Source of the DNA: Celeribacter sp.
Lineage (GTDB): Bacteria > Pseudomonadota > Alphaproteobacteria > Rhodobacterales > Rhodobacteraceae
Direction of reading: 5' to 3'
Length of the DNA: 64,000 bases
Assembly: GCF_048261515.1 (NCBI RefSeq)
Contig: NZ_JBLXFZ010000002.1
Coordinates: 23,347-87,346, forward strand
The notes beneath the pieces are model-generated. The model searched no databases, was not told where the DNA came from, and saw only the letters and a list, made by a program, of their open reading frames with translations. Shown piece after piece: positions 15,810-35,016 of the stretch. Position 1 is the first letter of the stretch. Each line of letters opens with the position of its first letter. Both the position numbers and the translations under genes were made by a program.

Positions 15810-16187
15810 ATGACGGAGTGCCATATGCACGATATGACAAAAGGCCAGAGGCCGAAACAGAAACTGACACAGAAATTCAAGCCCCGGCCGTGGGAGAGTA
15901 ATATTTTCGATGAGGTGAAAGGGGCGTCGGCTTGGCGCATCGAGCGTCTCGTACGGGCATGGGTCCCCGGGGCGCGTAGGTCCGGTGATCACCTGATCGT
16001 TCCGAACCCCAAGTGTGGTGATCTTAGCCCCAGCAATCTCATCATCGATCTTCACACGGGAAGCTGGAATGATCGCGAACGCGGCTACTATGGCAAGGAC
16101 ATCATTTCCTTCTACGCGTATTTTCGCGGTCTGACACAGCTTGAGGCCGCGCGGGACCTCGCGATGCAGCTCGGAGTTGACGCATGA
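15810..16187 (+). CDS. Small primase-associated protein (resembles the N-terminal domain of P4/satellite-type primases)
   Basis: VPNPKCGDLSPSNLIIDLHTGSWND...KDIISFYAYFRGLTQLEAARDLA pattern; stop overlaps the next ATG (ATGA). Confidence 0.6.
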   Translation: MTECHMHDMTKGQRPKQKLTQKFKPRPWESNIFDEVKGASAWRIERLVRAWVPGARRSGDHLIVPNPKCGDLSPSNLIIDLHTGSWNDRERGYYGKDIISFYAYFRGLTQLEAARDLAMQLGVDA

Positions 16188-18745
16188 ACGATATGTCTCA
16201 TCACTCTACTGCGCGCCACTTTCTGCGCCCTCTCAGGTCAAAAGACCTGCCGGAAACCGCACTCCCTTGTGTGTCTGTCCCTGCGGAGTTTCCGATGCCT
16301 GATATGCGTCTCGGGACGACTGTGCCTGTCGCGACATATGAGTATCGTCATGGGGACGGGACTTTGGCGTTCCTTGTTGCTCGTTGTGAGTACGATGATC
16401 GGACGGGATTTTATCCGTTCAGCGTTTGGCGTGTGGAAGGTCAGAAACGCTGGGTCAATAAGGCGCTCCCCGTCGATGCTTTCGCAACGCGGGCACCGCT
16501 CTACCGTTTGACGGACCTCATGTCGAATTCTCTCAAACCCGTTTTGATCTCTGAGGGAGAGAAATGCGCGGATGCAGTTGCAGGGTTCGAGAGCGTTGTC
16601 TCGACAACCTGGCATGGCGGCGCGAAGGCGTTGGCAAAAACCGACTTCTCGCCGCTGAAGGGCCGCGATGTGATCATCGCACCCGATGATGACGAACCGG
16701 GTGCCAAGGCGGCCGAGACGCTGGCCGATACGGTGAAGGCACTCGGCGTCGCGCGTCTGCGGGTTTTGAGGGCAAGCGCGCTGACCGACATGTTCGTTGG
16801 CATGCGCAACACGGGCTTTGATATCGCGGATGCCATTGACGCCGGACTGTGTGAGGCACAGTTCATGGCTCTTCTGGAACAGGCCGGGATGGTGGAGGAG
16901 ATTGATGTGACGGTTGCGGAGGAAGGCGCCACCGATGCAGCTTCTGATGAACATACCGATGAGGACCCCATCTGTCGTGAATTGCGCGAGCAGTTTGGTT
17001 TCGAACTCGATCTGCCTGACAATTTCAACATGTCCGTGGGCGGTATTGTGAAATACGACGTGGACCGTCGCGGCCAGCCGGTTGAGGTCTACGCAGGGTC
17101 TCCTATCGCTGTCCTCGGCAGGACAAAGCTTGTCACGAGCCGCGGCGGATGGGGCTATCGCATCGCGGTGCGGGCACCAAAACACGACTGGGAGTCCTTC
17201 ACTGTGCCTGGCCGTTTGCTCGCGGGCGACGGGCGTGACCTGCGCGAAATGATTGCCGACACTGGCGGAATTGTTCCGCAGCAGATGGACGGGCGGCGCG
17301 CCTTGGCTGAGTATATTGCCGAAGCCGCGCAGACTTGTCCGATCGTCAATGTCACCGACCATCCCGGCTGGTGTGGGGAGGCCTTCGCATTGCCTGATGT
17401 GATTGTTTCGCCCGAGAAAGATGACATGCAGCTGACGCTCGACATGGGCGATCGGCCGACCCTGCTTGCAACGGCGGGCACTCTGGAGGGGTGGCAGGAC
17501 CTGACGCGGCTCGCCGCACCAAACAGCCGTGCGACATTCGCGATCTGCGCGGCGCTCGCAGCACCCTTGCTCAGGCCTCTCGGCATCGAGGGCGGTGGCT
17601 TCCATTTCTACGGCCAGTCGTCCCGCGGAAAAACCACCCTGTTGATGCTCGCGGGCTCCGTGTGGGGCGGCGGGGGACGTGATGGGTTTCTGCGGAGTTG
17701 GCGCATGACGGTGAACGGGGCCGAAAGCGTTGTCGCGGATCACAACGATTTGGCGCTCTGTCTCGATGAAATGACCGTTGCGGATGCGGACGGGTTCACC
17801 GACATGCTCTATATGCTCGCGAACGGGCAGGGCAAAGCACGTGCGAAGAAAGACGGCAGTGCCGCAGCAAGCGCAAAGTGGAATGCGTTGGTCTTGTCGT
17901 CAGGTGAGAACACCATTGAGCAGCAGCTTGAGCAGGGGCGCGGGAAGCGGCGTATGACGGGTGGCATGGTTGTGCGCATGATCGACGTGCCCATCGAAGT
18001 CGAACCGGGCGTGAGTTTTGAAGACCTCGGGCCGTACGAGAATGGCGGCGCCTTCGCGGATCAGATCAAAGCGCTCTCCCGCGCGCATTATGGTCACGCG
18101 GGCCGCGTGTTTTTGCGGGCCCTCGTCAATAATCGCGAGGCGCTGTTGGCCAAGGCGCGTGAGCATATCGAAGCCTGTTTGGAGCGCATGCTCGATGACG
18201 ACGATGATCCGCAGATCCAGCGCGTTGCACGGCGTTTTGCCGCTGTTGCCGCCGCAGGGCATTTGGCCGAGCAGGCGGGTATTTTGCAGATCTCACCGGA
18301 GCAGATCGACGATGCGGTTTCTGGATGCTTTGGTGCCTGGATTGTGGCTCGTGGCGGCGGTCAGTCCGAGGAATGGCGCAGCGCCGCGCGACACCTGCAG
18401 TACTTTTTCGAGGCTCACGGCCCGACGCGTTTCGAGCGCCTCGAAAATGGGAAGGCCGCCGACGATGATGCGGAGCGCAGTGACGGTTTTGCTATCCGTG
18501 ATCGTTGCGGGTATCGCGTCGAGCAGGAGGATGGCGCGTGGCTTTACTATGTGCTGCCCTCGGCGTGGGAGCGGGACGTCTGCGGACCTCACTCACCCGA
18601 TCTCATGGTCAAGATTGCTAAGGACCGCGGCGCGCTGATCTGCGGTGAGGGCGGGCGCAGCAAAAAGAACGTTCGTCTTCCCGACTACCCCAACACCACG
18701 CGCGTCTACGCCATCCGTCCCGATCTCCTCGCTGGCGACGGGTGA
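16184..18745 (+). CDS. Toprim primase-DUF927-AAA+ helicase fusion (satellite/island replication protein)
   Basis: Toprim EGEKCAD and PDDDEPG; DUF927-like centre; Walker A GQSSRGKT; Walker B LCLDEM. Confidence 0.85.
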   Translation: MNDMSHHSTARHFLRPLRSKDLPETALPCVSVPAEFPMPDMRLGTTVPVATYEYRHGDGTLAFLVARCEYDDRTGFYPFSVWRVEGQKRWVNKALPVDAFATRAPLYRLTDLMSNSLKPVLISEGEKCADAVAGFESVVSTTWHGGAKALAKTDFSPLKGRDVIIAPDDDEPGAKAAETLADTVKALGVARLRVLRASALTDMFVGMRNTGFDIADAIDAGLCEAQFMALLEQAGMVEEIDVTVAEEGATDAASDEHTDEDPICRELREQFGFELDLPDNFNMSVGGIVKYDVDRRGQPVEVYAGSPIAVLGRTKLVTSRGGWGYRIAVRAPKHDWESFTVPGRLLAGDGRDLREMIADTGGIVPQQMDGRRALAEYIAEAAQTCPIVNVTDHPGWCGEAFALPDVIVSPEKDDMQLTLDMGDRPTLLATAGTLEGWQDLTRLAAPNSRATFAICAALAAPLLRPLGIEGGGFHFYGQSSRGKTTLLMLAGSVWGGGGRDGFLRSWRMTVNGAESVVADHNDLALCLDEMTVADADGFTDMLYMLANGQGKARAKKDGSAAASAKWNALVLSSGENTIEQQLEQGRGKRRMTGGMVVRMIDVPIEVEPGVSFEDLGPYENGGAFADQIKALSRAHYGHAGRVFLRALVNNREALLAKAREHIEACLERMLDDDDDPQIQRVARRFAAVAAAGHLAEQAGILQISPEQIDDAVSGCFGAWIVARGGGQSEEWRSAARHLQYFFEAHGPTRFERLENGKAADDDAERSDGFAIRDRCGYRVEQEDGAWLYYVLPSAWERDVCGPHSPDLMVKIAKDRGALICGEGGRSKKNVRLPDYPNTTRVYAIRPDLLAGDG

Positions 18746-18789
18746 TCGTTTAACAACCAACTGCCCCCGCCTGCCTTGTTAAACGATCA
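18743..18789. other. Palindromic site A (14-bp arms, 19-bp spacer)
   Basis: TGATCGTTTAACAA-N19-TTGTTAAACGATCA, a perfect IR that starts at the helicase stop codon. Confidence 0.85.
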
Positions 18790-18964
18790 GGGCAGGTGGG
18801 GGCTATGCCGTGAGTGAGGCGAGCGGGGGGGAACGCTTTTCTACCAGGTGCCGTGTCGATGGCGTGTCGACCATGGCACGCCGTGATCCTATCGCGCCAG
18901 GTGTCGCGACACGGGCGCCGATATTGCATTGGCCGAGGTGATGGCCCCTCGCAGTACGCCACTT

Positions 18965-19323
18965 CTAATTTGTGTCTGTGGACGTGACTACTTTCAGAGC
19001 TTTGACACCCGCGGTTTGTAGATAGCGCAACAACCTTTCACCATAACTGCCAGAACATTCGATGCCGACGCGTTGCAGATCACCGAATGAACGCATCCAT
19101 TCCAACATCATGCGATGTCCATGCCGTGTGGTTGCGAAGCTCTCGGTGCCGAGCGCAGGGTCGTAATGGTCGACGACGGATTCAACGTGTAAATCCGTGT
19201 GAGTGTCGACGCCTCCGACGATGTAAGGTGTGTATGTTTCTTGCCTTTTGATGCTCCTTTCATGCGGCAAGTGAGTGAGCGTTGCTCAGAAGAATGCAGG
19301 GACAGGACCGGTTATTGTCTAAG
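18965..19323 (-). mobile_element. IS110-family remnant (N-terminal DEDD domain plus ~55 bp of upstream non-coding end)
   Basis: GGVDTHTDLH...GTESFATT...FGDLQRVGIECSGSYG; stops after ~100 aa with no C-terminal domain. Confidence 0.8.
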
Positions 19324-19474
19324 TGATCTATCCCCGCGGGTGCGGGGGAGCCCAACTCTCTTTGTCTGACATCGATTTCATCTGGGGTCTATCCCCGCGG
19401 GTGCGGGGGAGCCTACACACGCGGCCCCAATGGCGTCAGAGGCCAGGGTCTATCCCCGCGGGTGCGGGGGAGCC
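19324..19474 (-). CRISPR. Type I-E CRISPR mini-array: three 29-bp repeats and two 32-bp spacers
   Basis: Repeat GGCTCCCCCGCACCCGCGGGGATAGACCC at 19446-19474 and 19385-19413, with a degenerate terminal copy at 19324-19352; spacers at 19414-19445 and 19353-19384. Confidence 0.95.
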
Positions 19475-19539
19475 TCTTGCGAGCAATAGGTTGATTTTAT
19501 TCAATTGTCAAAGGGCGTGAAGGCGAGTTATCGGGGCGC
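19475..19539 (-). promoter_or_regulatory. CRISPR leader
   Basis: AT-rich TTGACAATTGAATAAAATCAACC...GCAAGA between the cas2 stop and the first repeat. Confidence 0.7.
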
Positions 19540-19833
19540 TCACTTTCGTTTGGCGAGTAAAACTCCATCTGCATCGACAATGTCTTTAGGTGGTTCGCCC
19601 AAATTTTCGATCTGCAGGTGTCCGGTCGCGGAGGTGTCGCGCCAGACAAGTGTGAGGGAGCCTTGACGCAGGTTTTCCCACCAGTCAGAGACGACATTCC
19701 AGACCCGTGTGCGCACCCCTGCTGTCATATCTGGCGCGACGTATACGCCGGGCGAGATTTCTAACATGACGGAGGTCAGGAAGCCGCGGTATCGGGTTTG
19801 GACATTCCGAGTGACGATAATGGTGAGTGCCAT
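19540..19833 (-). CDS. cas2: Type I-E Cas2
   Basis: MALTIIVTRNVQTRYRGFLTSVMLEISPGVYV...DADG; 97 aa; true start at 19833. Confidence 0.92.
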   Translation of the reverse strand: MALTIIVTRNVQTRYRGFLTSVMLEISPGVYVAPDMTAGVRTRVWNVVSDWWENLRQGSLTLVWRDTSATGHLQIENLGEPPKDIVDADGVLLAKRK

Positions 19834-20156
19834 CAATCGCGGCCTTCGATCAAGGTTTTGATCCGTTCGATCATAGCAGAGATAATTTTTTCGTCGGATA
19901 GGGTGCGGGCATGAGCCAAAAGACGCAAAGCGTCGTGACTGACTGTAGAGCCTGGGCCCAAAAGGGTCATGGAGACGGTCTGAAGCGGGATAGCATAGCC
20001 GCCGGGGGAGAGAGCATCTGCGGGGGTGGTTTCTCCCTGCACAAAGGCGAGTGTGCCGTCGCGTGCCGTTAGGGCGCCGCGCGCAGGATAGAGGCATCCC
20101 GCGCGATCGGCGTGAGGGACTTTGACGCTGTCGAGGCCGAGGCGTCCTTTGAGCAT
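19833..20156 (-). pseudogene. cas1: Type I-E Cas1 with a large in-frame internal deletion (107 aa)
   Basis: Cas1 N-terminus (MLKGRLGL...LLGPGSTVSHDALRLLA) joined directly to a Cas1-like C-terminus (EKIISAMIERIKTL); located between cas6 and cas2. Confidence 0.85.
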
Positions 20157-20159
20157 TGT

Positions 20160-20894
20160 TCACTTCCTGCGTTGCGGCGGACGCAGGAGCAACATGCCAT
20201 AGCCATAGGTGCGATGGCGCCCGATGCCGCGTGCCAGAAGCTCGGCAAAGCCCTGTGGGTCTTGCACAGTCAAGGTGCCGAGGATCGTAGCATCTGGTCC
20301 CTCGATCCGTTTTCCGCCGCGCTGGACGACCTGACGCTGGAATTTGTGCAAACGAGTGGTGTCCCGCTCCATTTTAGCCACGGGCGAGAGCCGTTTGGCC
20401 AGCCAGTCGCGATAAACCTCTTCACGCGGACGTGCCTGATCGTTGCGCAGAGTTTCTGCGAGGAAGGCATCTATTTCGGCGCCCTTAGAAAAGGTTGTTT
20501 TGTCCGAGGTCAGCGCAGAGGCCAGCCGGACAACAGGGCGCAGGCGCAGATCGAAGCCGAACCTCGCGCCTGCCTGCCATGTTTCCGCCGGACGTGGGAG
20601 CGAGCGGATCTGTTCGAGGTTCAGAAGTGCGCATTCACTGGGGAGAGCGACGCTTTTGGCCGTCTCCAGAAGAGCCTGCGCCGGTTGTGAGCTATAGGCG
20701 TAAAGAGTGGCCCGCGTTGCGCGCGGTGCGACCATGAGGCGGAAGGGCTGCAATGCGGCGGGGCCGAAGACCTCGCCCAATAGGTGGTGCAGGGCCAGTC
20801 CTTCGTCAAAGGTGCCCTTGCTCAGGTTGCGTTGCGCAGCCCAACCGTGCAGGTCAGGCAGATGGATCGGGAGTTCGACGAGATGGAGGCTCAT
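20160..20894 (-). CDS. cas6e: Type I-E Cas6e (CasE/Cse3)
   Basis: RAMP with C-terminal GIGRHRTYGYGMLLL glycine loop. Confidence 0.93.
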   Translation of the reverse strand: MSLHLVELPIHLPDLHGWAAQRNLSKGTFDEGLALHHLLGEVFGPAALQPFRLMVAPRATRATLYAYSSQPAQALLETAKSVALPSECALLNLEQIRSLPRPAETWQAGARFGFDLRLRPVVRLASALTSDKTTFSKGAEIDAFLAETLRNDQARPREEVYRDWLAKRLSPVAKMERDTTRLHKFQRQVVQRGGKRIEGPDATILGTLTVQDPQGFAELLARGIGRHRTYGYGMLLLRPPQRRK

Positions 20895-21589
20895 GCGATT
20901 TCTCCTTCGCAGATAATCCGTGTGCCACCGTGCAGTCCGGTTTTCCAGTTCCGCAAATCCTGCAGGTCGTATTTGAGCGCACCGTCGTAGGGTCGGCCAT
21001 CATCGGGCCAGATCGCGCGGCCTGTGATTCCCTGTTCCGCGAGGGCCTTGAGGGCTGCATAGGGGCTATCGGCCTCAATCCATCCGGCAACGAGGCGGCG
21101 TGTCGGCAGACAGGGTTTGCGTCCCAGAAACAGCGGGCGTGCCGGACGATCGAGCGCGTCTGCCAGTTGCTCTAGCGAAGGCGACACATCGGAGGTCAGC
21201 CGGATCACCACATGGGTGTCATGGTCGGCCAGATAATCGCGGCGACGACGGTGCGGGCTGTCATAAGTGGCCCCTGCACGTCCTTCGGGCTGGCCCCATG
21301 TGGTCCAGCCTTTGTCTTTTTTTTCCAGTTTGGCGTTCTGCGTATCGGTTACGATCAGCGGGGCGTGTCGCCCTTCGGGCAGGGCCGAAAGTGCGGCAAA
21401 CTCCAGCCGGTTTTGCAGCGCCTGATGGGCGGCGCTGTCCTCGCGCCGCCAGCCGAGGGCATTGGCAAAGAGTCCTGTCAGTGCGGAGGCGGCGGGGTAG
21501 TCCCGCGACGGACCGACATGGTCGATTGTCCCCCCTCCAAAGGCCATGAGCGGCGCGGCGAGGTGAAGATGGAGCCAGCGTTGCGTCAT
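20891..21589 (-). CDS. cas5e: Type I-E Cas5 (CasD)
   Basis: APLMAFGG, PAASALTGLFANALG, RRRDYLAD, LFLGRKPC. Confidence 0.93.
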   Translation of the reverse strand: MTQRWLHLHLAAPLMAFGGGTIDHVGPSRDYPAASALTGLFANALGWRREDSAAHQALQNRLEFAALSALPEGRHAPLIVTDTQNAKLEKKDKGWTTWGQPEGRAGATYDSPHRRRRDYLADHDTHVVIRLTSDVSPSLEQLADALDRPARPLFLGRKPCLPTRRLVAGWIEADSPYAALKALAEQGITGRAIWPDDGRPYDGALKYDLQDLRNWKTGLHGGTRIICEGEIA

Positions 21590-22725
21590 GCAGCCTCCGG
21601 CGCTTTCAGCCGCTTGGGTAGGGATTTGGCGAATTGGGCCAAATTCTCAAGCGACCCGCGTTCCGCATCGGGCACCTCGGTGTTGGCCAGCGACATTACG
21701 CGGCGGGTTTCACCTGTGGCATAGGCGGAATCGAGCGCGGCAAGATGGTCGCACAATGCGGCAACGGCCTGACCTGTTTCGGCCTTGCAGGGAGAGCGGA
21801 AGGCTTCGGCAAGGGAACGCGGTTGCCGGTCTCCGGCCTCAAGCAACATAAAGGATGCGCGCGAATAGGGCGCGGTAGATCCCAGCTTGGCGCCTGGTGA
21901 CACTTCAGCAATCAGGTAGGTCAGGTTGTGCAGCACTTCTCCGGCCAGCGCCACGTCGCCGCCGAGGTTCTCGATCAGGCCGGGCAGGTCTACCACTACA
22001 TAGCCGTAGAACAGCCCCGACGTCAGCTCGGTTTCCTGAATGGTGTCGGCGCCCGTGTCCACTTCGCGGGCCAGATCGTCGGCGGCGATGAAGTAATCGC
22101 TTTCTGCCTCTTCCGCGTGGACGGTGAAGGCATGGGCGACATGCACGGGTGCCTCGATATTGGCGCGAGGATCGGATGTCACCATACGCCCGAAGAGTGC
22201 TCCCGTGAGACCGGCGGGCATTTTGGTGCCTTCACTCATGGCTTTGAGGTTGGCCTTGTGCTCCTTGAGCCATTGTGCTGCGAGATCCTTTGCAGCTTTC
22301 TTGTCGCCGCCTGCCTCCGCCACAAGTTCCTTGGCCGCTTTGGTCAGATAGGCGATTTCAACGGCACCGAGAAGCAAGGTCTGACGCGACTTCTTGTCAG
22401 CGCCTTTGTCGCCATAGACTGCTTTCAAAAGAGCGTCTCCGATTTCCTTGCGCACGTCCTCGTCAATACTGTCAGCCCATTCTCCGAAAACCTTGCGTTC
22501 AACGATTTCGCGCGACCGAAAAGCATCTTCAGCCCCGTCGATCTCGCTCAATGCATGGAGGTCTTCGGCTAGACGCCAGTGCCGCTTGAGACATTGGGAA
22601 CTGACCCGTGTGCGCAGGGCTCCTCCATAGGGTAGTCGCTTGGCAAGGCCTGCATCGTCACGGTTGAGCAATGCGGCTGTATAGGGGGCGAGGAAATGGA
22701 TTTGCAGGAAGCGCGGATCAGACAT
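21586..22725 (-). CDS. cas7e: Type I-E Cas7 (CasC/Cse4)
   Basis: LLNRDDAGLAK, RVSSQCLKRHW, ALFGRMV, HVAHAFTVH, YGYVVVD. Confidence 0.95.
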   Translation of the reverse strand: MSDPRFLQIHFLAPYTAALLNRDDAGLAKRLPYGGALRTRVSSQCLKRHWRLAEDLHALSEIDGAEDAFRSREIVERKVFGEWADSIDEDVRKEIGDALLKAVYGDKGADKKSRQTLLLGAVEIAYLTKAAKELVAEAGGDKKAAKDLAAQWLKEHKANLKAMSEGTKMPAGLTGALFGRMVTSDPRANIEAPVHVAHAFTVHAEEAESDYFIAADDLAREVDTGADTIQETELTSGLFYGYVVVDLPGLIENLGGDVALAGEVLHNLTYLIAEVSPGAKLGSTAPYSRASFMLLEAGDRQPRSLAEAFRSPCKAETGQAVAALCDHLAALDSAYATGETRRVMSLANTEVPDAERGSLENLAQFAKSLPKRLKAPEAA

Positions 22726-23260
22726 TTTGGATTTCCTTTTCAGGGGTGCGCGCGCTCTGGTCGAGGCGCTGGTAGTAGTCGCGGGCGATGCCCTGCCCGT
22801 CTTGTTTCAAATAGGCCCATGCAAGACTGGGCACGTCGATCTGGGGGTGTTTACGTGCAAGCATCCGTATGGCCCGTTCAAGAGCATCATGCCGTGCCGT
22901 GCCCCGTGCGGCGAGCAAACGTGCAAGGCGGGGTTCGGAGAGTACCGGCTTTTCAATATGCGCCCGAGCGTCGCCTCCATCGGCAAGAATAGCTCCGAAC
23001 TGGCGACCATTTTCATGGATGCTTTCGGTTGAGCTGGCAGGGGTCAGGAGCGCCAGTGCCTTTGTGATCGCTCGCCACACGGGTTCTTCGGCAGGAGTCA
23101 TGCCGAACCGCGCTGCCATACGCCAAAAGACCGGCGCCCCCTCGGTGCCCATGCGGCGTGCGGCGGCCTTTTCGCCGCTGGACGCGTGAGCAAGTGCTGT
23201 TGCAATCGCCAAGGCGCGGGCGCCAACTGATGTGGCAGCATTGGTGTCACTTTCAGACAT
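22718..23260 (-). CDS. cas11e: Type I-E small subunit Cas11 (CasB/Cse2)
   Basis: Position between cas8e and cas7; SEPRLARLL and ARDYY motifs; start moved to ATG 23260. Confidence 0.85.
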   Translation of the reverse strand: MSESDTNAATSVGARALAIATALAHASSGEKAAARRMGTEGAPVFWRMAARFGMTPAEEPVWRAITKALALLTPASSTESIHENGRQFGAILADGGDARAHIEKPVLSEPRLARLLAARGTARHDALERAIRMLARKHPQIDVPSLAWAYLKQDGQGIARDYYQRLDQSARTPEKEIQNV

Positions 23261-24755
23261 GTTCCTTCTCCGTGATCCCGAAATTCTCAAATATTTTTCG
23301 AATACTGCTCTCAAAAGCCGCGCGGCCGCGTGTCATGGCGCGTGGCCGCATGATCCCCGCACAGGGAATCGCGGGGGCGGCGCGTGCAAACTCGGCGCGA
23401 GCGGCTGCGGCCAGATGGCGGGTAAAGCGGTTCTGTGCCTCATTGCGGGCATAATCGTCCGAGCATGCCAGTTTCTCCCAAAGAGCGGGGAAAAAGGCTG
23501 CATCGGCAATGCGTGCGACCTGATCGCAGGCGGGTTGGCTACGGGCGTATTCGGCTTTGCCGCGCTTGGCAAAGTCGCCCTCGGCTGCAATCAGGGCTAA
23601 CCCGTCTCGCAATGCACGATCAATATCGTCGATGGTCTTGACTTGTACGGCGGAAAATTCTGCAGCTTGTGGGCCGATCATAGATTTTGTCACGGCTTTT
23701 GGCACTGGAACGACACGGGATTTGAAGCCGTCAGTCTTGGAATTCCCGCGAGCAAAGGCTTCGGCGACCAATGCCATGTCTATAGCCTCTTCATCAGCCG
23801 TCGAAGTGGCCAGTTCCGGCACTTTCCATTCTCCGCCATAGAGCAAGCGCGTAAGAAGTTTATAGCTCCAGTTCTGTTCCCCGAGTGTCAGGGTTTTGTT
23901 CTCGGAGAGGTGAACCGGTGCCCAAGGATCGCCAGTCATGCCTTTGGCTTCCTTGGCCGCGATCCGAGCGGCTTTTGATGTGCCGCGTTTTGCAAAGAGG
24001 CCTTGCGGACTTTCTAGGAGGCGGATGCGGCGACATACCTCAATGAACATTGGATCAAGCGTATGGAGATCGAGCATCTGCTTCTGAGGCCAAGGCAGGC
24101 ACCACAAAAGCGCGGGTCCCGACAGGCCGTTGCGCTTGGCCAGGAGCCGCGTCACGTCACGTCGCCACCATGCGGAGGGATCTATGATCGCTGTGCCTGA
24201 TTGCACTGGTACAAGGCCGATCATTGCCCGCGACGAGGAGCCGCCATTCATCCGGGCAATGCCGTAGTTCCCAGCACCGCCGAACCCCTCCATCGTTTGT
24301 AGGCTCACCAGCGCAAAGAGCCAGTCCTGCGGTGTAGCGTTATGGGCGATCTCACGTTTAAGATCGTGATTGCGCGAGGTGATGAGCATGTCGAGCGCAT
24401 CAGGGGTCGCCACTTCGCTCCACTTCACGCCGCCGGGATTAGGGGGCTGCAAGAAGGCGGGCTTGCTGTCATCCTCTACGACCAGGTGCCACGCTACGTC
24501 ATCCTCGAACTCGGCAGTCAGTTTGCGCAGATTTTCGCGCCATGTCTCTTCATCCTCTGGCAAGGGGACATCCTGTCCGCTGTGCGCCAAAACAGCCAAT
24601 TGCACGAGAAACATGTGCCATGCGGGTCTCTGGTGGGGACGCAGGGCAGGGAAACTCCGGACCTCACCACGTGCCATCGCGGCAAAAATCCCAGGTAAGG
24701 TGAACGCCCCACCGTTGGTATGAATAAGAGGGTCAACCAAGAGGTTATGTGTCAT
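23253..24755 (-). CDS. cas8e: Type I-E large subunit Cas8e (CasA/Cse1)
   Basis: HNLLVDP, LRPHQRPAWHMFLVQL, GFGGAGNYGIARMNGG, EVCRRIRL. Confidence 0.9.
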   Translation of the reverse strand: MTHNLLVDPLIHTNGGAFTLPGIFAAMARGEVRSFPALRPHQRPAWHMFLVQLAVLAHSGQDVPLPEDEETWRENLRKLTAEFEDDVAWHLVVEDDSKPAFLQPPNPGGVKWSEVATPDALDMLITSRNHDLKREIAHNATPQDWLFALVSLQTMEGFGGAGNYGIARMNGGSSSRAMIGLVPVQSGTAIIDPSAWWRRDVTRLLAKRNGLSGPALLWCLPWPQKQMLDLHTLDPMFIEVCRRIRLLESPQGLFAKRGTSKAARIAAKEAKGMTGDPWAPVHLSENKTLTLGEQNWSYKLLTRLLYGGEWKVPELATSTADEEAIDMALVAEAFARGNSKTDGFKSRVVPVPKAVTKSMIGPQAAEFSAVQVKTIDDIDRALRDGLALIAAEGDFAKRGKAEYARSQPACDQVARIADAAFFPALWEKLACSDDYARNEAQNRFTRHLAAAARAEFARAAPAIPCAGIMRPRAMTRGRAAFESSIRKIFENFGITEKEHV

Positions 24756-24757
24756 AG

Positions 24758-27259
24758 TTATGTCTCCTCCAGACGTGCCAACCCCGATGCGTCATAAATG
24801 AAACCTGCGGTCCCGACGCGGAACGTAAGCGGGGAGGTCGTGATGATCTCTGTTGCTTCATCCCCCGTCAGGTCACGCGCCCAATGCGCAGGCAGGGCAA
24901 GCGTTGCGACAGGTGCTCCGAAGGGGCCGATTGTGCCTTCGGGAAAGGTAACAATGGGGCCGCTTTCACCCAGCCGCGTGCGGATGACTTCCTCGTTGGG
25001 GAAGGTGTCTGGAAACTTTTCGCGGCGGTCGAGGATGACATTTTGTGCCCCCATGGTCTCCGCGATAACCTTTCCCGTCACACGGCGACGATAGTCTTCC
25101 AATCCATTTTGAGCGGCAATCTCGTCGAGTCGTTCGGGATGGGTGGCGCGTTCGACCAGTCTGCGGTTCATCTGCGGAATGCGCCACAGCGGCTCGTTCT
25201 CGATTTTGTGCAGTGTCGCGGCCAGACCCGGCACGTCGAGATAGACGCCGGAAAGCGTTGTGTTCTGTCCATATGTGCCCAAGCCATTCTCCGGCTCGCG
25301 GGTTAGTCGGCCAAGGTCGCCCTCGGGGCAGAGGACCACGGCGCTGGCTTGTTCGAACCCGCTGGGGCGAGGCCGGTTGTGGCGGTGTAGGCGGCCGATC
25401 CTTTGCAGCAGCACATCCATCGGGCACAGGTCGGTGATCAGTATATCGGCATCAATGTCGAGCGATTGCTCCAGTGTTTGGGTGCCAATGACGATGACGC
25501 CTTGTGCGGCGCTGTCCTTGCCCAGAACTGCCTCGACGTGGACGTCGAGCCGCGCCCGGTCTTCAGCGGTAAACCGGCTGTGATGTAGGGTTGGCGTGCG
25601 ATTCAGGCAAAACATCAGATCGGGGGCCTCACTTACGCAGGCGGCAAAGGTCTCTCGCGCGCGGTCAACGGTATTTCGGATGACCAACACCCGCGCTCCG
25701 CGGCGGGCAGCCGATATGGCTTTGGCGGCGGCGTCTTCGCCGCTCCAGCCGCTGTATGCGGTAACCGCGACATCCTTTTGTGCCGTGTGGCGGGTCTGGA
25801 CAGGGAAACACTCACCTTTTGTCCAGACTGCGGGGTAGGGTGTCTGTTCTGCCTCCGATAGGCTGGGGAGCGGTGTTTCGCGCCAGGCGGATCGCGCCAC
25901 GGCCCCAAGGGTGGCTGACATCAAGAACGCATGCCCCCCAAGCGCCAGATGGTCACGTAGAACCGCGCGCTGGATTTCTGTCATCCATGCATCCGAGGCG
26001 TGAACTTCGTCAATGACCAGCAAGGAGCGCGACAGTGCCGATCCACGCAAATGCGCATGTTTGACCTGAAGCCCCGCCATCATCGCTTGATCCACTGTGC
26101 CGACAGCAATCTGAGCGGTGAGATAGCGCGTCGCGTGTTCGGCCGCCCATCGTTTTGCTCGGGTGTCGCTGCCCGCATTGTCATCCCATTTTACCTCGAA
26201 AGCGGGCAGGCGAATGCCATGCGCCTCGCCGGAAACGGTTTGCCCCGGTATCGCAAGCACGGCTTCGGGGACTGGAGCGGAAAATATGCGGGCCATCGCC
26301 GCGTTTACACGGCTTTGTAATTGACGGGCTGCGGCACGAGTGGGAACGGCGAAGTAAAGGCTGTCCACGGCGCCGATTTCATACAGTTGAACAAAACGCC
26401 ACAGCGCGGATTCGGTTTTGCCTGCACCTGTTTCAGCCTCAAGGATCACAAGATTGTCGGAAAGTGGGGTTCGAGCCACGACCTCCTGTGCTGGGCGTGG
26501 TGTCGGGTAATCTGACAAGAGTGCCCATGAGGCAGGGCCGGAGAGATGGCGGTCGGATGTGTCCAGACCGATCTCATGGACACGCCGTCGTGCCCGCTTT
26601 CGGGCGGTGTCCCAATAATCTGGGTCGTATGTTGCGACGAATGGAAACGCCTCCCGATCCGATCCGATCCAGTCCGCCAGTGCCAGAAGGCCGCAAAAGA
26701 AATGTGCAAATGTGGGGGACGGTGGTGGTGGGCGGTGGTCGCGGATTTCGGGAAACCATGACGCGAGAGCCTGCCCCATACGGGCCTCTTCAGCTTTCCA
26801 GTCATATTCTTCCAGCGGAGCAAAGGCATCTTGTGCCCAGCTTGGATCCGGACAGGTAACGGGGCGGCCATGATGGGCGAAGAGTATTTTAAACCAGACC
26901 TCTATCCTGTCCCAGCGGACGATATGGAGCGCCTGTCCGCCAAGGGCACTTGCTGCATCGCCCTGCTGCAGCCATTTCCAGCCGCACCGCAAATGATCAC
27001 GCGTCTTGCGGGGATATGGTGAGGGAAGGGCTTTGCTTTGAAAGGACGGGGCTAGCTTTCCGATGTCATGGAGAAACGCGAGTGCGCCCAAACACATGAG
27101 TTGCTCATTCGTCAGACTTTGCCCTGCTGCGCGTTCTGCGCGGGCGCGCAATGTAGGGAGTTCAAGTAGGGCAAGCAGCGTGGCCGCGACATCAGCACTG
27201 TGATGCGCGAGATGGTGAAACTCGCCTGTATCTGTGTCAGTTTTGCCCCAAGAATGCAT
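24758..27259 (-). CDS. cas3: Cas3 HD nuclease-SF2 helicase, apparently intact
   Basis: HHSADV, HDIGK, LADWIGS (HD domain); ETGAGKT, DEVH, SAT, HHSRF, QTLEQSLDID, QRIGRLHRH. Confidence 0.96.
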   Translation of the reverse strand: MHSWGKTDTDTGEFHHLAHHSADVAATLLALLELPTLRARAERAAGQSLTNEQLMCLGALAFLHDIGKLAPSFQSKALPSPYPRKTRDHLRCGWKWLQQGDAASALGGQALHIVRWDRIEVWFKILFAHHGRPVTCPDPSWAQDAFAPLEEYDWKAEEARMGQALASWFPEIRDHRPPPPSPTFAHFFCGLLALADWIGSDREAFPFVATYDPDYWDTARKRARRRVHEIGLDTSDRHLSGPASWALLSDYPTPRPAQEVVARTPLSDNLVILEAETGAGKTESALWRFVQLYEIGAVDSLYFAVPTRAAARQLQSRVNAAMARIFSAPVPEAVLAIPGQTVSGEAHGIRLPAFEVKWDDNAGSDTRAKRWAAEHATRYLTAQIAVGTVDQAMMAGLQVKHAHLRGSALSRSLLVIDEVHASDAWMTEIQRAVLRDHLALGGHAFLMSATLGAVARSAWRETPLPSLSEAEQTPYPAVWTKGECFPVQTRHTAQKDVAVTAYSGWSGEDAAAKAISAARRGARVLVIRNTVDRARETFAACVSEAPDLMFCLNRTPTLHHSRFTAEDRARLDVHVEAVLGKDSAAQGVIVIGTQTLEQSLDIDADILITDLCPMDVLLQRIGRLHRHNRPRPSGFEQASAVVLCPEGDLGRLTREPENGLGTYGQNTTLSGVYLDVPGLAATLHKIENEPLWRIPQMNRRLVERATHPERLDEIAAQNGLEDYRRRVTGKVIAETMGAQNVILDRREKFPDTFPNEEVIRTRLGESGPIVTFPEGTIGPFGAPVATLALPAHWARDLTGDEATEIITTSPLTFRVGTAGFIYDASGLARLEET

Positions 27260-27302
27260 TCAAATAACGATCAACTGTATCATTGTCTGTCTAATGCCGG
27301 GA

Positions 27303-27332
27303 ATTGTGCGAGGACTATATGTGTCGCACAAT
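27303..27332. promoter_or_regulatory. Candidate operator upstream of cas3
   Basis: Perfect 9-bp IR ATTGTGCGA-N12-TCGCACAAT, 44-73 bp upstream of the cas3 start. Confidence 0.4.
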
Positions 27333-27682
27333 GGAGGAATTCTGGCCTTTATGTATGTACCGCTTCTTGGCCGCTTCTTGTAAAAACACGCAATTTTGGG
27401 ATAGTGAATTCCAGTCAAGCGAGGCCCGTTCGGCTTTTGCAGAGAGCATTGAGCTCGGGGGGTGACTTGCGGGATTTCGGAAATTGATCCGACGCGGACA
27501 AAACGCAGCGTGACTGTTATTCCCCTAAACTCCGAGGAGTTGTGGCGAGGCAGGACGTCCTCATTTCAGATCAGTGTGACAACCCTGATCATTCCTCACT
27601 GTTTTTATTCGTGCAAAAGCGCCGTCTGTGCTAAAGTAGACCGCAATCTGTGGTGTAGCTGTGGCATGAGCGGCCCTTCGGA

Positions 27683-27729
27683 TAATCGTTTAATAATAGT
27701 ACGATACCGTCACGATAGTTAAACGATCA
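27683..27729. other. Palindromic site B (14-bp arms, 19-bp spacer)
   Basis: TAATCGTTTAATAA-N19-TAGTTAAACGATCA; arms match site A at 12/14 and 13/14 with identical spacing. Confidence 0.8.
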
Positions 27730-27734
27730 TGATC

Positions 27735-28976
27735 TCAGTGCAGTAGCGGTCGCGCGTTGACGGCTTTCAGCTCCGAGACAATGCGGTCGATGTGGCGCAG
27801 TGTGACTGCGCGAGACCAGTTGCGGATGACGGCCATCCGCAGAGCAAACAAGTCACGTGGATCGAGGTCCGCATGATGCGTTTCGACGTATGCCATCACA
27901 TCATCGATCGTCAGTCTCGGGATCTGGATGACGCGCATCCGTGACAGCAAAACGGGGTCGATAGCGTTGATGTTGTTGGCTGTCAGGATGAATGACACAT
28001 CGCCCAGATCGACGGTCACACCAGTCGCGGGGCAGCGGAAATGCTTTGCCGTAGAGCGTTCGAGAAGTGGCAAAAGCGCATCAGACATCGAGCTGCGCGA
28101 GCCGCTGCTCGACGTGGCGCCCTTGCCGACCTTGTCGATCTCATTGATGATGACCATCGGATTTGGCGATTGGCTGTCGATCACCGCGCGAAAAACGTCA
28201 CCCATCTGGCTCGACGACCAACCCGCCTCGACACCTGCGATCCGCATCGCGGATGTGCCTGCACCCGCATCGATCTCGACGTGGTGGATGCCAGCTTGTT
28301 CCGCGATATTCCGCGCGAGTGTCGATTTGCCTGTGCCATGCGCACCGACGAGGAGGGTAGGGGTCAATCCGAAGAAGCGGTCCTCCACCATTCGGGCTTT
28401 TAAGGAGGACCAGATCACGTTCAACGGGCGCTGCAACCAAGGCGCTTCGGCGAAGATCTTGGCGACCAGCTCGTCGATCTCGTGCTCAGAGCGCGGTCCT
28501 GCGTAGGCGAGTGGCCCCGTGGCGGATTGGAGCCGTTTGAGTGTCTCCTTATCCGTTTTAGAGGAGATTTGGCGTGTTAGGGGATAGCGCCGCGCATATT
28601 TTGTTGCGCGGGCTTCAATGTGCTTTTTCTGTTCGCTCTTCTGGTTGATCACGGTTTCAACAATCAGACAGGCTTGGAAATATGAGAAGTCGTGTGCATC
28701 GGCACGGCAGGCGTCCGGATCGAACGAGGTCAAAAGCTCCGCAATCTGTTTGCGGAAGGCTTTGAAGTTGAAATCGAAGTTCTGGAACACGCTGGCTTCG
28801 TGGCTGAGCTCGTCAATGCCGATGTCGAAGGCTTCGTCAAACGGAATACCGAGTTCGTCCGCCTTGGATTTGAGACGCGTATAGGCGCGTTTGCGTGAAG
28901 CGCGCAGCAACTTCTTCCAGATGCGCGTTTTGGCTTCGCTTCGTGTCTCGCGGATGGTGTAGGTCGTTTTCTTCAT
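27735..28976 (-). CDS. AAA+ ATPase with a Lon-like ATPase module and no protease domain
   Basis: Walker A GAHGTGKS, Walker B-like IINEIDK, LLPLLE, FILTAN, LLSRMRVI; start placed at MKKTT. Confidence 0.8.
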   Translation of the reverse strand: MKKTTYTIRETRSEAKTRIWKKLLRASRKRAYTRLKSKADELGIPFDEAFDIGIDELSHEASVFQNFDFNFKAFRKQIAELLTSFDPDACRADAHDFSYFQACLIVETVINQKSEQKKHIEARATKYARRYPLTRQISSKTDKETLKRLQSATGPLAYAGPRSEHEIDELVAKIFAEAPWLQRPLNVIWSSLKARMVEDRFFGLTPTLLVGAHGTGKSTLARNIAEQAGIHHVEIDAGAGTSAMRIAGVEAGWSSSQMGDVFRAVIDSQSPNPMVIINEIDKVGKGATSSSGSRSSMSDALLPLLERSTAKHFRCPATGVTVDLGDVSFILTANNINAIDPVLLSRMRVIQIPRLTIDDVMAYVETHHADLDPRDLFALRMAVIRNWSRAVTLRHIDRIVSELKAVNARPLLH

Positions 28977-28980
28977 AGCG

Positions 28981-29115
28981 CTATCCAATGAAGAGCGACA
29001 GAATATCGGACAAGATGCTGAGCAGATCGTCAGCAAGAACGATCATATTCGCCGCGGCCAAAGCCAAAATTTGAAGGTCGCGTTCTGTACGCGTTTTGTT
29101 GTTTGAAGTCGTCAT
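28981..29115 (-). CDS. 44-aa small protein with a hydrophobic C-terminus
   Basis: MTTSNNKTRTERDLQILALAAANMIVLADDLLSILSDILSLFIG; AGGAG RBS; stop 4 nt before the ATPase start. Confidence 0.55.
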   Translation of the reverse strand: MTTSNNKTRTERDLQILALAAANMIVLADDLLSILSDILSLFIG

Positions 29116-29294
29116 GATGACATCTCCTAATGATGGTAGGAGTCCCGAGTATCGAACTCGGCCGTCCGCGCTCATCTGGCGCCAATTCTCGGGGGTATAA
29201 GACCCGACCGCACACCTGTGCTGACTCCCGTTGCTGGAAGCAGTGCTAATCAACCGATCAGCGTATGGTGTGGATCGTGCTCTTGGTCATCATG
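29116..29294 (-). ncRNA. Structured 5' leader (candidate cis-regulatory RNA)
   Basis: Series of hairpins (GCTGATC/GATTAGC, CTTCC/GGGAG, TCGGG/CCCGA, CCGAGT/ACTCGG) ending in CTCCTA/TAGGAG, which occludes the RBS. Confidence 0.45.
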
Positions 29295-29300
29295 CGGGGT

Positions 29301-29329
29301 ATATGGGATTAAGGTGCATGTTGGTCAAG
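29301..29329 (-). promoter_or_regulatory. sigma70-type promoter
   Basis: CTTGAC-N17-CCATAT, close to the rhizobial RpoD consensus CTTGAC-N17-CTATAT. Confidence 0.55.
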
Positions 29330-29738
29330 GGGAGGAGGAGAAGAGTCAATCTCGTTTTTCCGCAAGACTTTGTTGAACAGATCTGAAGTCAGACGATATG
29401 CCAGTCTCGATTGTGTCCTTCGTCTCAGTGGTCTCGGATCGGAGTGTCTCATGAGCCTGCGCAATTCGACATAGTGTTAAAGCGTCATCATCTCGGCCAG
29501 CTTCGGTTCGGTTCTTCTCATTGTTTTGGCGGTAAAATTTCCCATGGCATGAATGTTTTGAACATTTGCTCTTGCCATTTAAATTATTTGTAGTCACAAA
29601 TTGGACTATACAAATTGGAGTCGACGGATTGCTTGCGCTTTCCTTGGCTTCAGTGGGGCGGCGGTTCGCGTTTGCTGCCGGATTTTTATGGATGGCCTCG
29701 CCGGCCGATGCCCGTTCGCAACTTAGGAGTTTTGCTTC

Positions 29739-30395
29739 ATGACCTTTTCCCCCGATGAGCTGGCAAAGCGGCAAGCCATTATCGATCACTGCATCTTGAT
29801 GAATAGCTCGGGGCTCAATCAAGGGACGTCGGGAAACGTTTCGATCCGTCATGGCGAGGGACTTTTGATCTCACCGACGTCACGTCCCTATGCGAGCCTC
29901 ACACCGGAAGACATCGTCTTTATTGATGGGGACGGGGAGCCGCATGGTCGCTGGAAGCCTTCGACCGAATGGCGTTTCCACCGTGATATTCTCAAGACAC
30001 GCAAGGACGCAAATGCTGTGGTCCATGCGCACCCGACCTACACCACGATCCTTTCGATCCATAACAAAGAGATCCCCGCCATCCACTACATGCTGGCGGT
30101 CTTCGGCGGGCCGAATATTCGCGTTGCTCCCTATGCGATTTACGGAAGCCAAGAGCTTTCCGACAATGCGATTGAGGCACTGGTGGATCGTCAGGCCTGT
30201 ATCCTCGAGCACCACGGCATGATCTCCGTCGGCACCTCGATCCAGCAGGCATTCTGGTACGCGACCGAGCTTGAAACCCTTGCGCGTCAGTATCACGGCG
30301 CCCTGCTTCTGGGTGAGCCGCCTTTGCTTACGGATCAGCAAATTCAGGATGTCATCGACAAAATGGCGGGCTACGGCCTGAGCGACAAAAAATAA
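29739..30395 (+). CDS. Class II aldolase (L-fuculose-phosphate aldolase family)
   Basis: GTSGNVS, PSTEWRFH, HAHP, LEHHGM. Confidence 0.92.
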   Translation: MTFSPDELAKRQAIIDHCILMNSSGLNQGTSGNVSIRHGEGLLISPTSRPYASLTPEDIVFIDGDGEPHGRWKPSTEWRFHRDILKTRKDANAVVHAHPTYTTILSIHNKEIPAIHYMLAVFGGPNIRVAPYAIYGSQELSDNAIEALVDRQACILEHHGMISVGTSIQQAFWYATELETLARQYHGALLLGEPPLLTDQQIQDVIDKMAGYGLSDKK

Positions 30396-30406
30396 GGAGG
30401 CTCTCG

Positions 30407-31357
30407 ATGCCTAAGTACGACTATTCCGCAGTAGGCTTTTCTGTTCTCGATGTGCTGTGCCGCTACGCAGAAGATATGCCCCCTCCAGGTGGCGCGACAT
30501 TCGTGGACGAGATCCAGATGACGGTTGCGGGCACGGCAGCAGCGACGGCTGTTGATTGCGCGATCCTCGGTTTGAATGGCCAGATCGTCACCCGCGTGGG
30601 TCGCGATGACATGGGGAACTACCTCGTCAGCAAAATGGGCGAGTTCGGCATTGATACCTCTTTGGTGCAATATGACGACGACGTGCAGACATCGACCAGC
30701 ATGTTGCCCATCCGTCCTGACGGATCACGCAGCGGCTTTTTCGTTCCGGGCACGTCCGATACATTGGAGATCGGCCCCGAGCTTTGGGATGACGTTCTCG
30801 ACGCAGACATCATCCACCTCGGTGGCACGGGTCTGCTTGCAGCCTTTGACGGGGAGCCATCGGTTGCCTTGTTGAAGCGCGCGAAAGTGCTGGGTCGCAC
30901 GACTGTGTTCGATCTTATTCAGGCCAATCCCGAGACTATCGCCAAGGTCAATCCGCTTCTTCCGTACATTGACTACTTCGTGCCTTCCATCGTGGAGGCC
31001 GCAGCGATGGCCGGTGTCGATGATCCCGCAGAAGTCGCGCGTTGGTTCAAATCCAAGGGCGTCAAGAATGCGATCCTGACATTGGAAGGCGACGGCGTTT
31101 GGGTCGATCCCGAATTCGGTGAAGCGTTCCATCTGCCTGCACACAAGATCGACGTGGTCGACACGACGGGGTGCGGCGACAGCTTTACTGCGGGTATTAT
31201 CGTTGGCCTGTCCAAAGGGTGGGATATCCGCGAATGCGCTCGCTTCGCAAACGCAGTGGCTGCGAATGTCGCGCTCGGCTTGGGTTCCCAAGGCAAGCTG
31301 ACTTCGTTCGATGCCACCATCGAGGCCATGAACTCATGGCCTGTGCGCGACGCATAG
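30407..31357 (+). CDS. PfkB/ribokinase-family carbohydrate kinase
   Basis: AGTAAATA, VGRDDMG, DTTGCGDSFTAG. Confidence 0.92.
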   Translation: MPKYDYSAVGFSVLDVLCRYAEDMPPPGGATFVDEIQMTVAGTAAATAVDCAILGLNGQIVTRVGRDDMGNYLVSKMGEFGIDTSLVQYDDDVQTSTSMLPIRPDGSRSGFFVPGTSDTLEIGPELWDDVLDADIIHLGGTGLLAAFDGEPSVALLKRAKVLGRTTVFDLIQANPETIAKVNPLLPYIDYFVPSIVEAAAMAGVDDPAEVARWFKSKGVKNAILTLEGDGVWVDPEFGEAFHLPAHKIDVVDTTGCGDSFTAGIIVGLSKGWDIRECARFANAVAANVALGLGSQGKLTSFDATIEAMNSWPVRDA

Positions 31358-31390
31358 TCTGCACACAGCATAAAATTTTGGGAGGAAAAC

Positions 31391-32146: not shown

Positions 32147-32291
32147 GTGAAACGCGAGGCTGGCCGTGTGAGTGGCTGGCCTCCCGATACTATCCCGCTC
32201 GCCCTCTTTCGGAGACCTTCATGTGTCACACAGCATCAGCCTGCATAACACACGTCACGGTCTGTCTTTCTCGGACAGGGTGGGCGGACGC

Positions 32292-34642: not shown

Positions 34643-35004
34643 AGTATCACCTCGTACTTGATTACACCCTCGCGACAGGTCGCTTGTCGCCTTTCTTTAC
34701 CGCTTTGGCTGAAGGGCGGGCCTGTGCCAGCTCCTGCATGTCCTGCGGACAGACAGCCTTTCCGCCGCGCGCGACATGCGCGGCCTGCCACGCTGACGGG
34801 TTCGACTGGGTGGACCTGACGGGGGAGGCAGAGGTGCTTCACATCACGCATACGGCAGATTCCGCATTCGCATTGGTGCAATTCGACGGGGCGGACACAA
34901 CCGCGCTCGTCAGGATTGCGCATGACCAGACAGAGGGAACGCGCGGACGGCTCGTGCGCTCCGAAAATGAAACGGGCCTGTGGCTAGAGATCACGGCGTC
35001 TTAG
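34639..35004 (+). CDS. DUF35-type Zn-ribbon/OB-fold protein (thiolase partner)
   Basis: CMSCGQTAFPPRATCAAC; overlaps the thiolase stop. Confidence 0.85.
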   Translation: MKYHLVLDYTLATGRLSPFFTALAEGRACASSCMSCGQTAFPPRATCAACHADGFDWVDLTGEAEVLHITHTADSAFALVQFDGADTTALVRIAHDQTEGTRGRLVRSENETGLWLEITAS

Positions 35005-35016
35005 GAGGAAAAAGAG

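Follow-up and report, generated by a model that had tools for sequence, protein, structure and literature searches.

Does a pair of short palindromes define, at the DNA level, the place where a chromosomal island accepts defence genes? The question is raised by a 64,000-nucleotide stretch of the Celeribacter sp. genome (hereafter the window), in which a type I-E cassette of clustered regularly interspaced short palindromic repeats (CRISPR) and cas genes lies between two similar palindromes, site A and site B, the first situated at the end of a gene for a DUF927 primase-helicase and the second at the end of a gene for a Lon-like AAA+ ATPase (AAA gene). An initial annotation suggested that they may be recombination or protein-binding sites delimiting a swappable defence slot between two core genes. 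Defence systems gather in hotspots of mobile islands; in the present case, a short sequence under purifying selection is placed at the junction where related islands vary in cargo, and with an empty and an occupied state both at hand, the question can be tested directly in marine Rhodobacterales. Analysis of the locus and its relatives shows that the palindromes form a real, conserved and previously undescribed family, devoid of the defining features of the known families compared, and favours reading sites A and B as the ends of two separate backbone modules over reading them as a pair mobilising cas.

A Conserved Family of Palindromes in Rhodobacterales Islands

Both sites have the sequence initially ascribed to them, i.e., matched 14-19-14 palindromes at 18743-18789 (site A) and 27683-27729 (site B). 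Site A is TGATCGTTTAACAA, 19 nt, TTGTTAAACGATCA, and its first three bases are the TGA stop codon of the helicase open reading frame (ORF); site B is TAATCGTTTAATAA, 19 nt, TAGTTAAACGATCA, with the right edge 5 nt from the minus-strand AAA stop codon. A degenerate pattern matches only these two sites in the window (0.00 expected from 100 shuffles), in agreement with the earlier report of no further copy there, and the 12-nt half-site is found only at A and B in the whole assembly (3.4 Mb, 15 contigs), so that the motif is no dispersed repeat of this genome.

The motif search that had been proposed was run as an exact-pattern scan over one genome per species (185,579 species) and returned 94 stretches (retrieved stretches and loci carry L numbers below). 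About 22 of these matches, from Rhodobacterales genera (Celeribacter, Thalassobius, Tateyamaria, Cognatishimia, Marivivens, Pacificibacter, Tropicibacter, Ponticoccus, and Roseobacter) and one Hyphomonadaceae, share geometry and extended arms, and extra instances were found independently of the pattern via protein homologues. Altogether the family, TGATCGTTTAAYAAT-N15-18-ATTRTTAAACGATCA, counts at least 27 distinct instances, all of them in island DNA and confined to Rhodobacterales plus the single Hyphomonadaceae. Every genome has one copy, except the genome of the window (two) and the Celeribacter metagenome-assembled genome (MAG) G301 (three); thus what emerged is a conserved island family with one to three copies per genome and not a common dispersed repeat. 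Scanning of JGI metagenomes gave four matches, that of viral contigs none, and that of 72,556 plasmids one, attributed to chance. A search of Rfam over 18400-29700 gave no match at E <= 1, and a literature string search for the motif retrieved nothing relevant.

The half-site consensus over 27 distinct sites is T-G-A-T-C-G-T-T-T-A-A-Y-A-A-T, so that the arms have the form T-G-ATCGTTTAA-Y-AAT, are 15-16 bp long each and lie 15-18 bp apart. Half-site positions that were not imposed by the search (0, 1, and 12-14) are conserved too; the 15-18 nt spacers of the same 27 sites bear no relation to each other across the family. Scan matches from AT-rich Flavobacterium and Bacteroidales (within L031-L124) represent other motifs or chance; among them are unrelated motif families with the ATCGTTTAA core, e.g., a palindrome of 42 bp, CGACCATCGTTTAACCAT..., from rumen Bacteroidales and repeats of AATCGTTTAA, tandem or inverted, from Flavobacterium.

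Each Palindrome Adjoins Its Own Backbone Gene

The features of the window relevant to the sites are as follows.

15810-16187, plus strand: small ORF of 125 aa that overlaps the start of the helicase gene and is its backbone partner, clustering with the ORF 5' of the helicase in L127, L129, L147, and L148; no match in a Pfam search.
16184-18745, plus strand: DUF927 primase-helicase, 853 aa (Pfam DUF927, 1.6e-59; NCBIfam SCCmec Cch1, 1.9e-24).
18743-18789, no strand: site A, perfect 14-19-14 palindrome beginning at the helicase stop codon.
18763-18803, no strand: GC-rich hairpin H2 with a 16-bp stem and the right arm of site A as its loop; probable helicase terminator.
18965-19270, minus strand: N-terminal relic of an IS110-family transposase (Pfam DEDD_Tnp_IS110, 3.8e-7), truncating the CRISPR array.
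19324-19475, minus strand: type I-E CRISPR array, three repeats and two spacers.
19540-27259, minus strand: type I-E cas operon (cas3, cse1, cse2, cas7, cas5, cas6e, cas2; NCBIfam and Pfam), cas1 deleted.
27395-27522, plus strand: relic of the 3' end of a 647/657-aa gene, 64-67% identical over 118-134 nt to L149, L159, and L152.
27683-27729, no strand: site B, imperfect 14-19-14 palindrome, 5 nt past the AAA stop.
27735-29036, minus strand: Lon-like AAA+ ATPase without protease domain (Pfam AAA, 1e-18; Lon AAA module in PDB and NCBIfam).
27677-29348, minus strand: laterally shared AAA module (promoter, leader, peptide, AAA gene, palindrome), delimited by blastn blocks.
29536-36390, plus strand: core catabolic genes (aldolase, PfkB kinase, onward), 92% identical in nucleotides to L089 and in the same order in L147 and L148.

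The interval between the palindromes does comprise the relic of the insertion sequence (IS) IS110, the array and the cas genes, as initially described, but it additionally accommodates hairpin H2, interleaved with site A, and the approximately 130-bp relic of the 647-aa gene. Similarly, the AAA gene, called convergent, does converge on the helicase but is co-directional with the cas operon, both being transcribed from the minus strand towards the helicase.

Site A is a companion of the helicase, a protein related by Pfam and NCBIfam profiles to Cch of staphylococcal cassette chromosomes (SCC) and to satellite Rep proteins, and five relatives without cas have a copy overlapping the stop codon of this gene. 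In three congeneric loci (L089, a Celeribacter MAG, L147, and L148) the polysaccharide cluster, the helicase, site A, 105 bp and the aldolase gene follow each other in this order, with flanks 92% identical in nucleotides to the window and helicases 82, 82, and 76% identical; their copies of site A agree with that of the window in the spacer and in the interleaved GC hairpin, and no cas genes, site B or AAA gene are present at these loci. The succession of TGA, site A and GC hairpin is met again in a metagenome contig (L175) with a helicase 64% identical. In total, the helicase-to-palindrome distance is 0-95 bp in the window, L089, L147, L148, L175, L177, L127, and L130; in L177 and L130, a separate GC hairpin is located between the helicase stop and the palindrome. 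A helicase C-terminal domain co-varying with the presence of the site was sought and rejected, since helicases devoid of the site have the same tail. Other DUF927 lineages possess long-spacer palindromes or inverted iterons of their own, located no more than 300 bp 3' of the helicase gene in 11 of 29 loci, and the density of inverted-repeat clusters 3' of DUF927 genes is 1.9 vs. 0.40 per kb, i.e., enriched about five-fold. Such inverted motifs, e.g., CGTGTCGGAC..., GGGCGGATTTT..., and AATCCGACAA..., occur in repeated form 0-300 bp past the helicase stop in L008, L012, L013, L018, L028, and L029, all from lineages belonging to this bacterial family, and look like lineage-specific iterons.

Site B is linked in the same manner to the AAA gene. 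Homologues with 74-80% identity were found, and in all eight loci with AAA at least 74% identical (L149-L154, L159, and L162), the AAA stop is followed after 5-7 nt by a palindrome of the family whose spacer is homologous. Comparison by blastn with L152, L154, L159, and L162 delimited a shared block with its limits at the promoter (~29348) and at the outer edge of site B (27677-27685); homology between loci begins at the conserved promoter (CCTCCCCTTGACC). A gene for a hydrophobic peptide of 44-59 aa is always placed 4 nt 5' of the AAA gene (window 28981-29348; L149 9853-9996, L152 9817-9996, and L154 913-1059). The AAA+/small-peptide module is, together with the candidate 647+246-aa system described below, one of two further items repeatedly accompanying the site. 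The AAA family is multi-copy in many Rhodobacterales.

A different placement was encountered in several islands. The palindrome lies 470-520 bp upstream of the AAA gene in L127, L128, and L138 and upstream of a three-gene integrase operon in L129 and L155-L157, where an 83%-identical block begins within 2 bp of the palindrome. In L159, L152, and L162 it is followed, after about 20 nt, by the start of a co-directional gene. Intact islands neighbour tRNA genes, namely tRNA-Ser with a tyrosine integrase in L149 and tRNA-Leu with an integrase in L155; in L131 and L132, tRNA-Cys is followed by a 306-aa uncharacterised gene, which is not a confirmed integrase.

Placement of conserved inverted arms with a variable spacer and TG...CA ends in extragenic DNA after stop codons is also what might be expected of a miniature mobile palindrome of the MITE (miniature inverted-repeat transposable element) or REPIN kind, inserting after genes and spreading between islands with no island function. 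We regard this explanation as very improbable, given the copy number of only one to three per genome, flanks without target-site duplication, solo arms at chance frequency, and spacers inherited vertically within each module lineage; besides, 19 of 21 genomes, that of the window among them, lack the Y1 transposase RAYT (PF01797). REPINs, built on repetitive extragenic palindromic (REP) sequences, resemble the family in their two conserved inverted arms, less conserved spacer and extragenic location after stops, but are present in tens to hundreds of copies and are species-specific, in contrast to one to three copies distributed across genera on islands. With two copies in 3.4 Mb and no RAYT in this genome, assignment to REP/REPIN-RAYT was rejected, and so was that to MITEs or IS ends in view of the lack of target-site duplications and of any excess of solo arms.

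Empty, Occupied and Differently Filled States

The initial annotation suggested looking for relatives with an empty single site or with different cargo between DUF927 and AAA homologues, and both were found. The empty state is represented by L175, where the helicase, one palindrome with its GC hairpin and 11 nt are followed by the stop of a convergent AAA fragment (105 aa) clearly homologous to the C-terminus of the AAA protein from the window; the window itself, with two palindromes around the cargo, is the occupied state. Beyond the AAA-linked palindrome the cargo varies: a convergent 647+246-aa gene pair in L149-L153 and L162; a Mokosh/RecD-like helicase fragment in L154; and in L159 a 129-aa membrane protein followed by a 657+246 pair, behind which lies a type I-E operon that is complete, has a long array and is not flanked by a second palindrome on its far side. 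A pair of the same type is present in L140, with an FtsH/IetA-like ATPase in place of AAA. The convergent genes of 647-686 and 246 aa (L149 11520-14200, L152 11821-14528, L159 2535-5248, L140 10239-12919, and L162 381-2441) are 72-92% identical in nucleotides between loci, gave no match in Pfam and PADLOC searches and constitute a candidate two-gene system, possibly for defence.

Compared with the window, the congeners L089, L147, and L148 lack 18803-29535, and synteny with them picks up again at 29536. In all three, the GC hairpin is followed by 13 nt and then by TGATCTCAATGCAG, matching in 13 of 14 positions the bases past site B (linker and AAA stop region), which is suggestive of a relic of the AAA 3' end. 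Should this relic be genuine, the window would exceed the congeners on the helicase side by precisely 18803-27729, i.e., the cargo and site B, and most of AAA would have disappeared later from the congeners.

The proposal of a swappable slot between two core genes thus holds inasmuch as the helicase and AAA genes are backbone genes of one island family with an empty state and variable cargo, but the palindromes do not behave as a matched pair moving cas. Neither do they travel with the cas cassette, each being inherited with its own backbone gene, spacer included. Variable anti-phage cargo between conserved backbone genes is reminiscent of defence hotspots in P4-like satellites and prophages; the present islands differ in having a conserved palindrome as a mark of the cargo zone, a backbone of DUF927 helicase and Lon-like AAA genes, and hosts from the Rhodobacterales.

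Could the sites nevertheless be recombined? Cargo capture would imply a trans-acting recombinase inserting or excising units of cargo plus palindrome beside a resident palindrome, in a manner similar to integrons or pdif modules without IntI or Xer geometry. Consistent with it are the contrast of one-site empty L175 with the two-site occupied window, the extent of extra DNA relative to congeners on the helicase side (exactly cargo and site B), the change of cargo directly past the AAA-linked site, the ending of homology blocks at palindrome edges (0-30 bp away in four independent comparisons: +13, 0-6, +28, and -2 nt), and the TG...CA outer ends of 15-16 bp arms, as in sites of recombinases and transposases. 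Spacers, however, are inherited whole with the backbone gene and no hybrids were seen. The breakpoints vary (+14 nt at A, 0-1 nt at B, and +28, +60, and +140 nt elsewhere), and the indel endpoints do not share one position within the sites, that at A being 14 nt outside the palindrome and that at B coinciding with its outer edge. AAA islands carry cargo with only one palindrome. As to the enzyme, IntI, serine recombinases and Y1 transposases are all absent from the genome, the window contains no recombinase gene apart from IS fragments and no tyrosine recombinase, and the island integrases near sites are mutually unrelated. With spacers that are not hybrid and no cognate recombinase found, cassette exchange between A and B is unproven, and we consider recombination of this kind unlikely. 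The particular scenario of IntI-free capture, in which units of defence cargo with one palindrome would be inserted next to a palindrome already resident between the convergent genes for helicase and AAA, driven by a factor in trans, possibly host-encoded, appears distinctly unlikely; if true, it would provide a functional analogue of integron cassettes or pdif modules for multi-kilobase defence systems.

Particular recombination systems were compared one by one. Integron attC sites are likewise imperfect palindromes that close a gene unit at its 3' end, their outer boxes conserved and their centre variable, and the extra DNA is similarly arranged as cargo plus its own site beside a resident site. 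As to the attC core boxes RYYYAAC and GTTRRRY, GTTTAAC and GTTAAAC of site A fit them; most family members have AAT/ATT on one side. The family is distinguished by its length of 47-48 bp vs. 57-141 bp in attC, by the lack of L boxes, extrahelical bases and cassette arrays, by the perfect stem of site A, by conserved GATC running past the "R boxes", and by cargo of 9 kb with its own promoters. This assignment was rejected, integrase model TIGR02249 giving no match above cut-off in the genome of the window and 12 other palindrome-bearing genomes. The dif/Xer system was likewise discarded: the difference from the 11-6-11 geometry of dif was noticed initially, and arms of 15 bp lying 15-18 bp apart indeed disagree with 11-bp arms around a 6-8-bp centre. 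The best dif-like site of the genome, C2:278482 (outside the window), is TATGCTCATAA-TCGGTA-TTATGTAAAGG and has arms different from those of the palindromes. The pdif modules of Acinetobacter plasmids and integrative mobile elements exploiting Xer (IMEX) resemble the locus as gene modules bounded by short inverted-repeat sites and shuffled between replicons, but differ in geometry (11-6-11 vs. 15-17/18-15) and in the plasmid connection, given the single chance match among the plasmids scanned. A serine-recombinase att site was rejected because PF00239 has no matches in the genome of the window and is not consistently near sites elsewhere, and a tyrosine integrase core site because integrases near sites in L129, L146, and L149 are unrelated to each other and those of L149 and L155 adjoin a tRNA gene. 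No tRNA-derived direct repeats were found within the loci.

Ancestry of the CRISPR-Cas Cargo

The nearest relative of the cas operon is that of L159, with 90% nucleotide identity over two segments, one between the beginning of cas3 and cas6e and the other between cas2 and the first repeat. Identity of the AAA modules is lower, only 75%. The window lacks a 547-bp segment of cas1 (L159 13307-13854), and the remnant is fused in frame to cas2 (19540-20163). Its array has only two spacers, the IS110 relic abutting the last, degenerate repeat, in contrast to L159-L161 with intact cas1 and arrays of about 15-40 repeats. The 424 bp between site B and cas3 keep the above-mentioned relic of the 647-aa gene; owing to this relic and to the match with L159, the block of AAA, site B, 647-aa gene relic, cas genes and array is colinear with an L159-type island, the relic indicating that it descends from a gene order like that of L159. 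Missing from the block by loss are cas1, the 657/246 pair, the greater part of the array (through IS110) and the integrase, of which no homologue was found in the genome of the window. The type I-E system is accordingly predicted, by gene content, to be adaptation-dead.

Recognition as Duplex DNA or as RNA

Location of both sites 0-7 nt past the stops of convergent genes brings to mind a bidirectional terminator or insulator, which would shield backbone modules from read-through between convergent operons; some hairpins of the family are in fact far more stable than shuffled sequences (z of -5 to -6). The pattern of sequence evolution is of another sort. Pairwise differences in the AAA clade, in which no fetched locus contains a helicase gene, amount to 0.10 in arms, 0.345 in the spacer, 0.20 in the AAA gene overall and 0.40 at its third codon positions; the pairs are not independent, so that the effect size counts and not a p-value. 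Arms thus evolve about four times slower than synonymous sites. Changes in arms are one-sided and non-compensatory, i.e., it is the arm sequence and not the pairing that is conserved. At the RNA level, the minimum free energy fold of site A picks the GC hairpin (-36 to -39 kcal/mol, z of -3.8), conserved in all A-type sites, over the palindrome; for site B, stability does not exceed that of shuffled sequences (z about -1). Conserved arms, a drifting spacer and non-compensatory changes argue for a sequence-specific site on duplex DNA rather than an RNA hairpin or terminator.

Other observations against a terminator are the absence of a U-tract, the empty terminator scan at A and B, separate GC hairpins occupying the terminator position in A-type sites, L177, and L130, the palindromes upstream of operons (L129/L155, L127, L128, and L138), and the co-directional genes about 20 nt beyond it (L159, L152, and L162). 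We therefore find a terminator or insulator improbable. An intrinsic terminator proper was rejected for its AT-rich stem and 15-19-nt loop, with no terminator-like site at A or B, and a promoter inside site B for its match to consensus in only 9 of 12 positions and for the spacing, too long in the family. Two of the outcomes named initially as contrary to the slot idea, a dispersed repeat and a plain terminator, were accordingly not what was found. As for the supposed recombination or protein-binding sites, the palindromes are conserved sequence-specific DNA elements, as that wording implied, but neither hybrid spacers nor a cognate recombinase lend support to the recombination part.

A Proposed Organization of the Islands and the Role of the Sites

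We propose that each palindrome is a conserved end-piece of the adjoining backbone module in tRNA-integrating Rhodobacterales islands, so that site A would end the primase-helicase module and site B the peptide plus AAA module. In the basic island, the two modules would converge on a single palindrome and cargo would accumulate in the zone of convergence, which in the window contains the decayed 647/246 pair, the adaptation-dead type I-E CRISPR-Cas system and IS debris. Cargo would be bracketed by two copies here because the L159-type block brought its own palindrome. The arms would serve as half-sites on duplex DNA for a predicted dimeric or multimeric protein; that they are a sequence-specific protein site, a general reading that covers both origin and recombination, seems quite probable from their conservation. 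For the end-piece explanation as a whole, we consider the balance to be even.

Several observations weigh against it. Helicases at 50-53% identity with the same C-terminal tail (L176 and L178) and distant AAA homologues have no palindrome, and 14 of 20 palindrome-bearing genomes are devoid of any DUF927 helicase, the arms being still conserved. The 14-nt AAA relic of the congeners, though at the expected position, is non-significant alone (E ~1 in an unrestricted search). No binder was identified among nearby integrases and small neighbouring ORFs, and the spacer of site A has 79% G+C, which is poor for melting and speaks against an origin as well. A small DNA-binding gene beside the site was considered and rejected: 129-131-aa ORFs encode membrane proteins, and others are IS6 fragments or have no Pfam match.

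Within the end-piece explanation, the best single guess, though a tentative and rather doubtful one drawn from analogy, is that the palindrome may be the island replication origin or the site of helicase assembly, like the rep-adjacent ori of Staphylococcus aureus pathogenicity islands (SaPI) and phage-inducible chromosomal islands (PICI); a recombination site for cargo exchange ranks second, with a somewhat lower probability. Adjacency to the helicase 3' end in 8-9 loci favours the origin guess, together with the inverted iterons that other DUF927 lineages have at this place, a third, degenerate arm 22 bp beyond the right arm in L149 and L152 and a tandem 17-bp duplication covering the right arm end and flank (TAAACGATCAGATGTAC x2) beside the palindrome at L155 1322-1355. 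The SaPI/PICI ori 3' of pri-rep and crr of P4 are similar in the location of a repeated putative protein-binding sequence directly 3' of an island primase-helicase. Unlike them, the family has two inverted arms and rarely a third, site A contains no AT-rich unwinding region, and the arms persist without a DUF927 helicase and are absent beside some close helicases.

Transfer Between Genera and the Surroundings of the Locus

The palindromes at L114 5266-5311 (Celeribacter MAG) and L141 9976-10021 (Pacificibacter marinus) represent a common copy with both 60-bp flanks nearly identical, which points to recent intergeneric transfer of the segment; that of P. marinus adjoins a 1825-aa ORF. No second copy of the IS110 relic was found in the genome of the window. 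Outside the helicase-AAA region, the upstream part of the window comprises IS debris together with a polysaccharide cluster, and the catabolic operon is found downstream; tRNA genes are absent from the window. In L147 (8564-9082) and L148 (8539-9057), a NusG paralogue and a MarR gene are located between the polysaccharide cluster and the helicase module; the equivalent position in the window (~13.1-15.7 kb) is occupied instead by fragments of Mutator and rve transposases.

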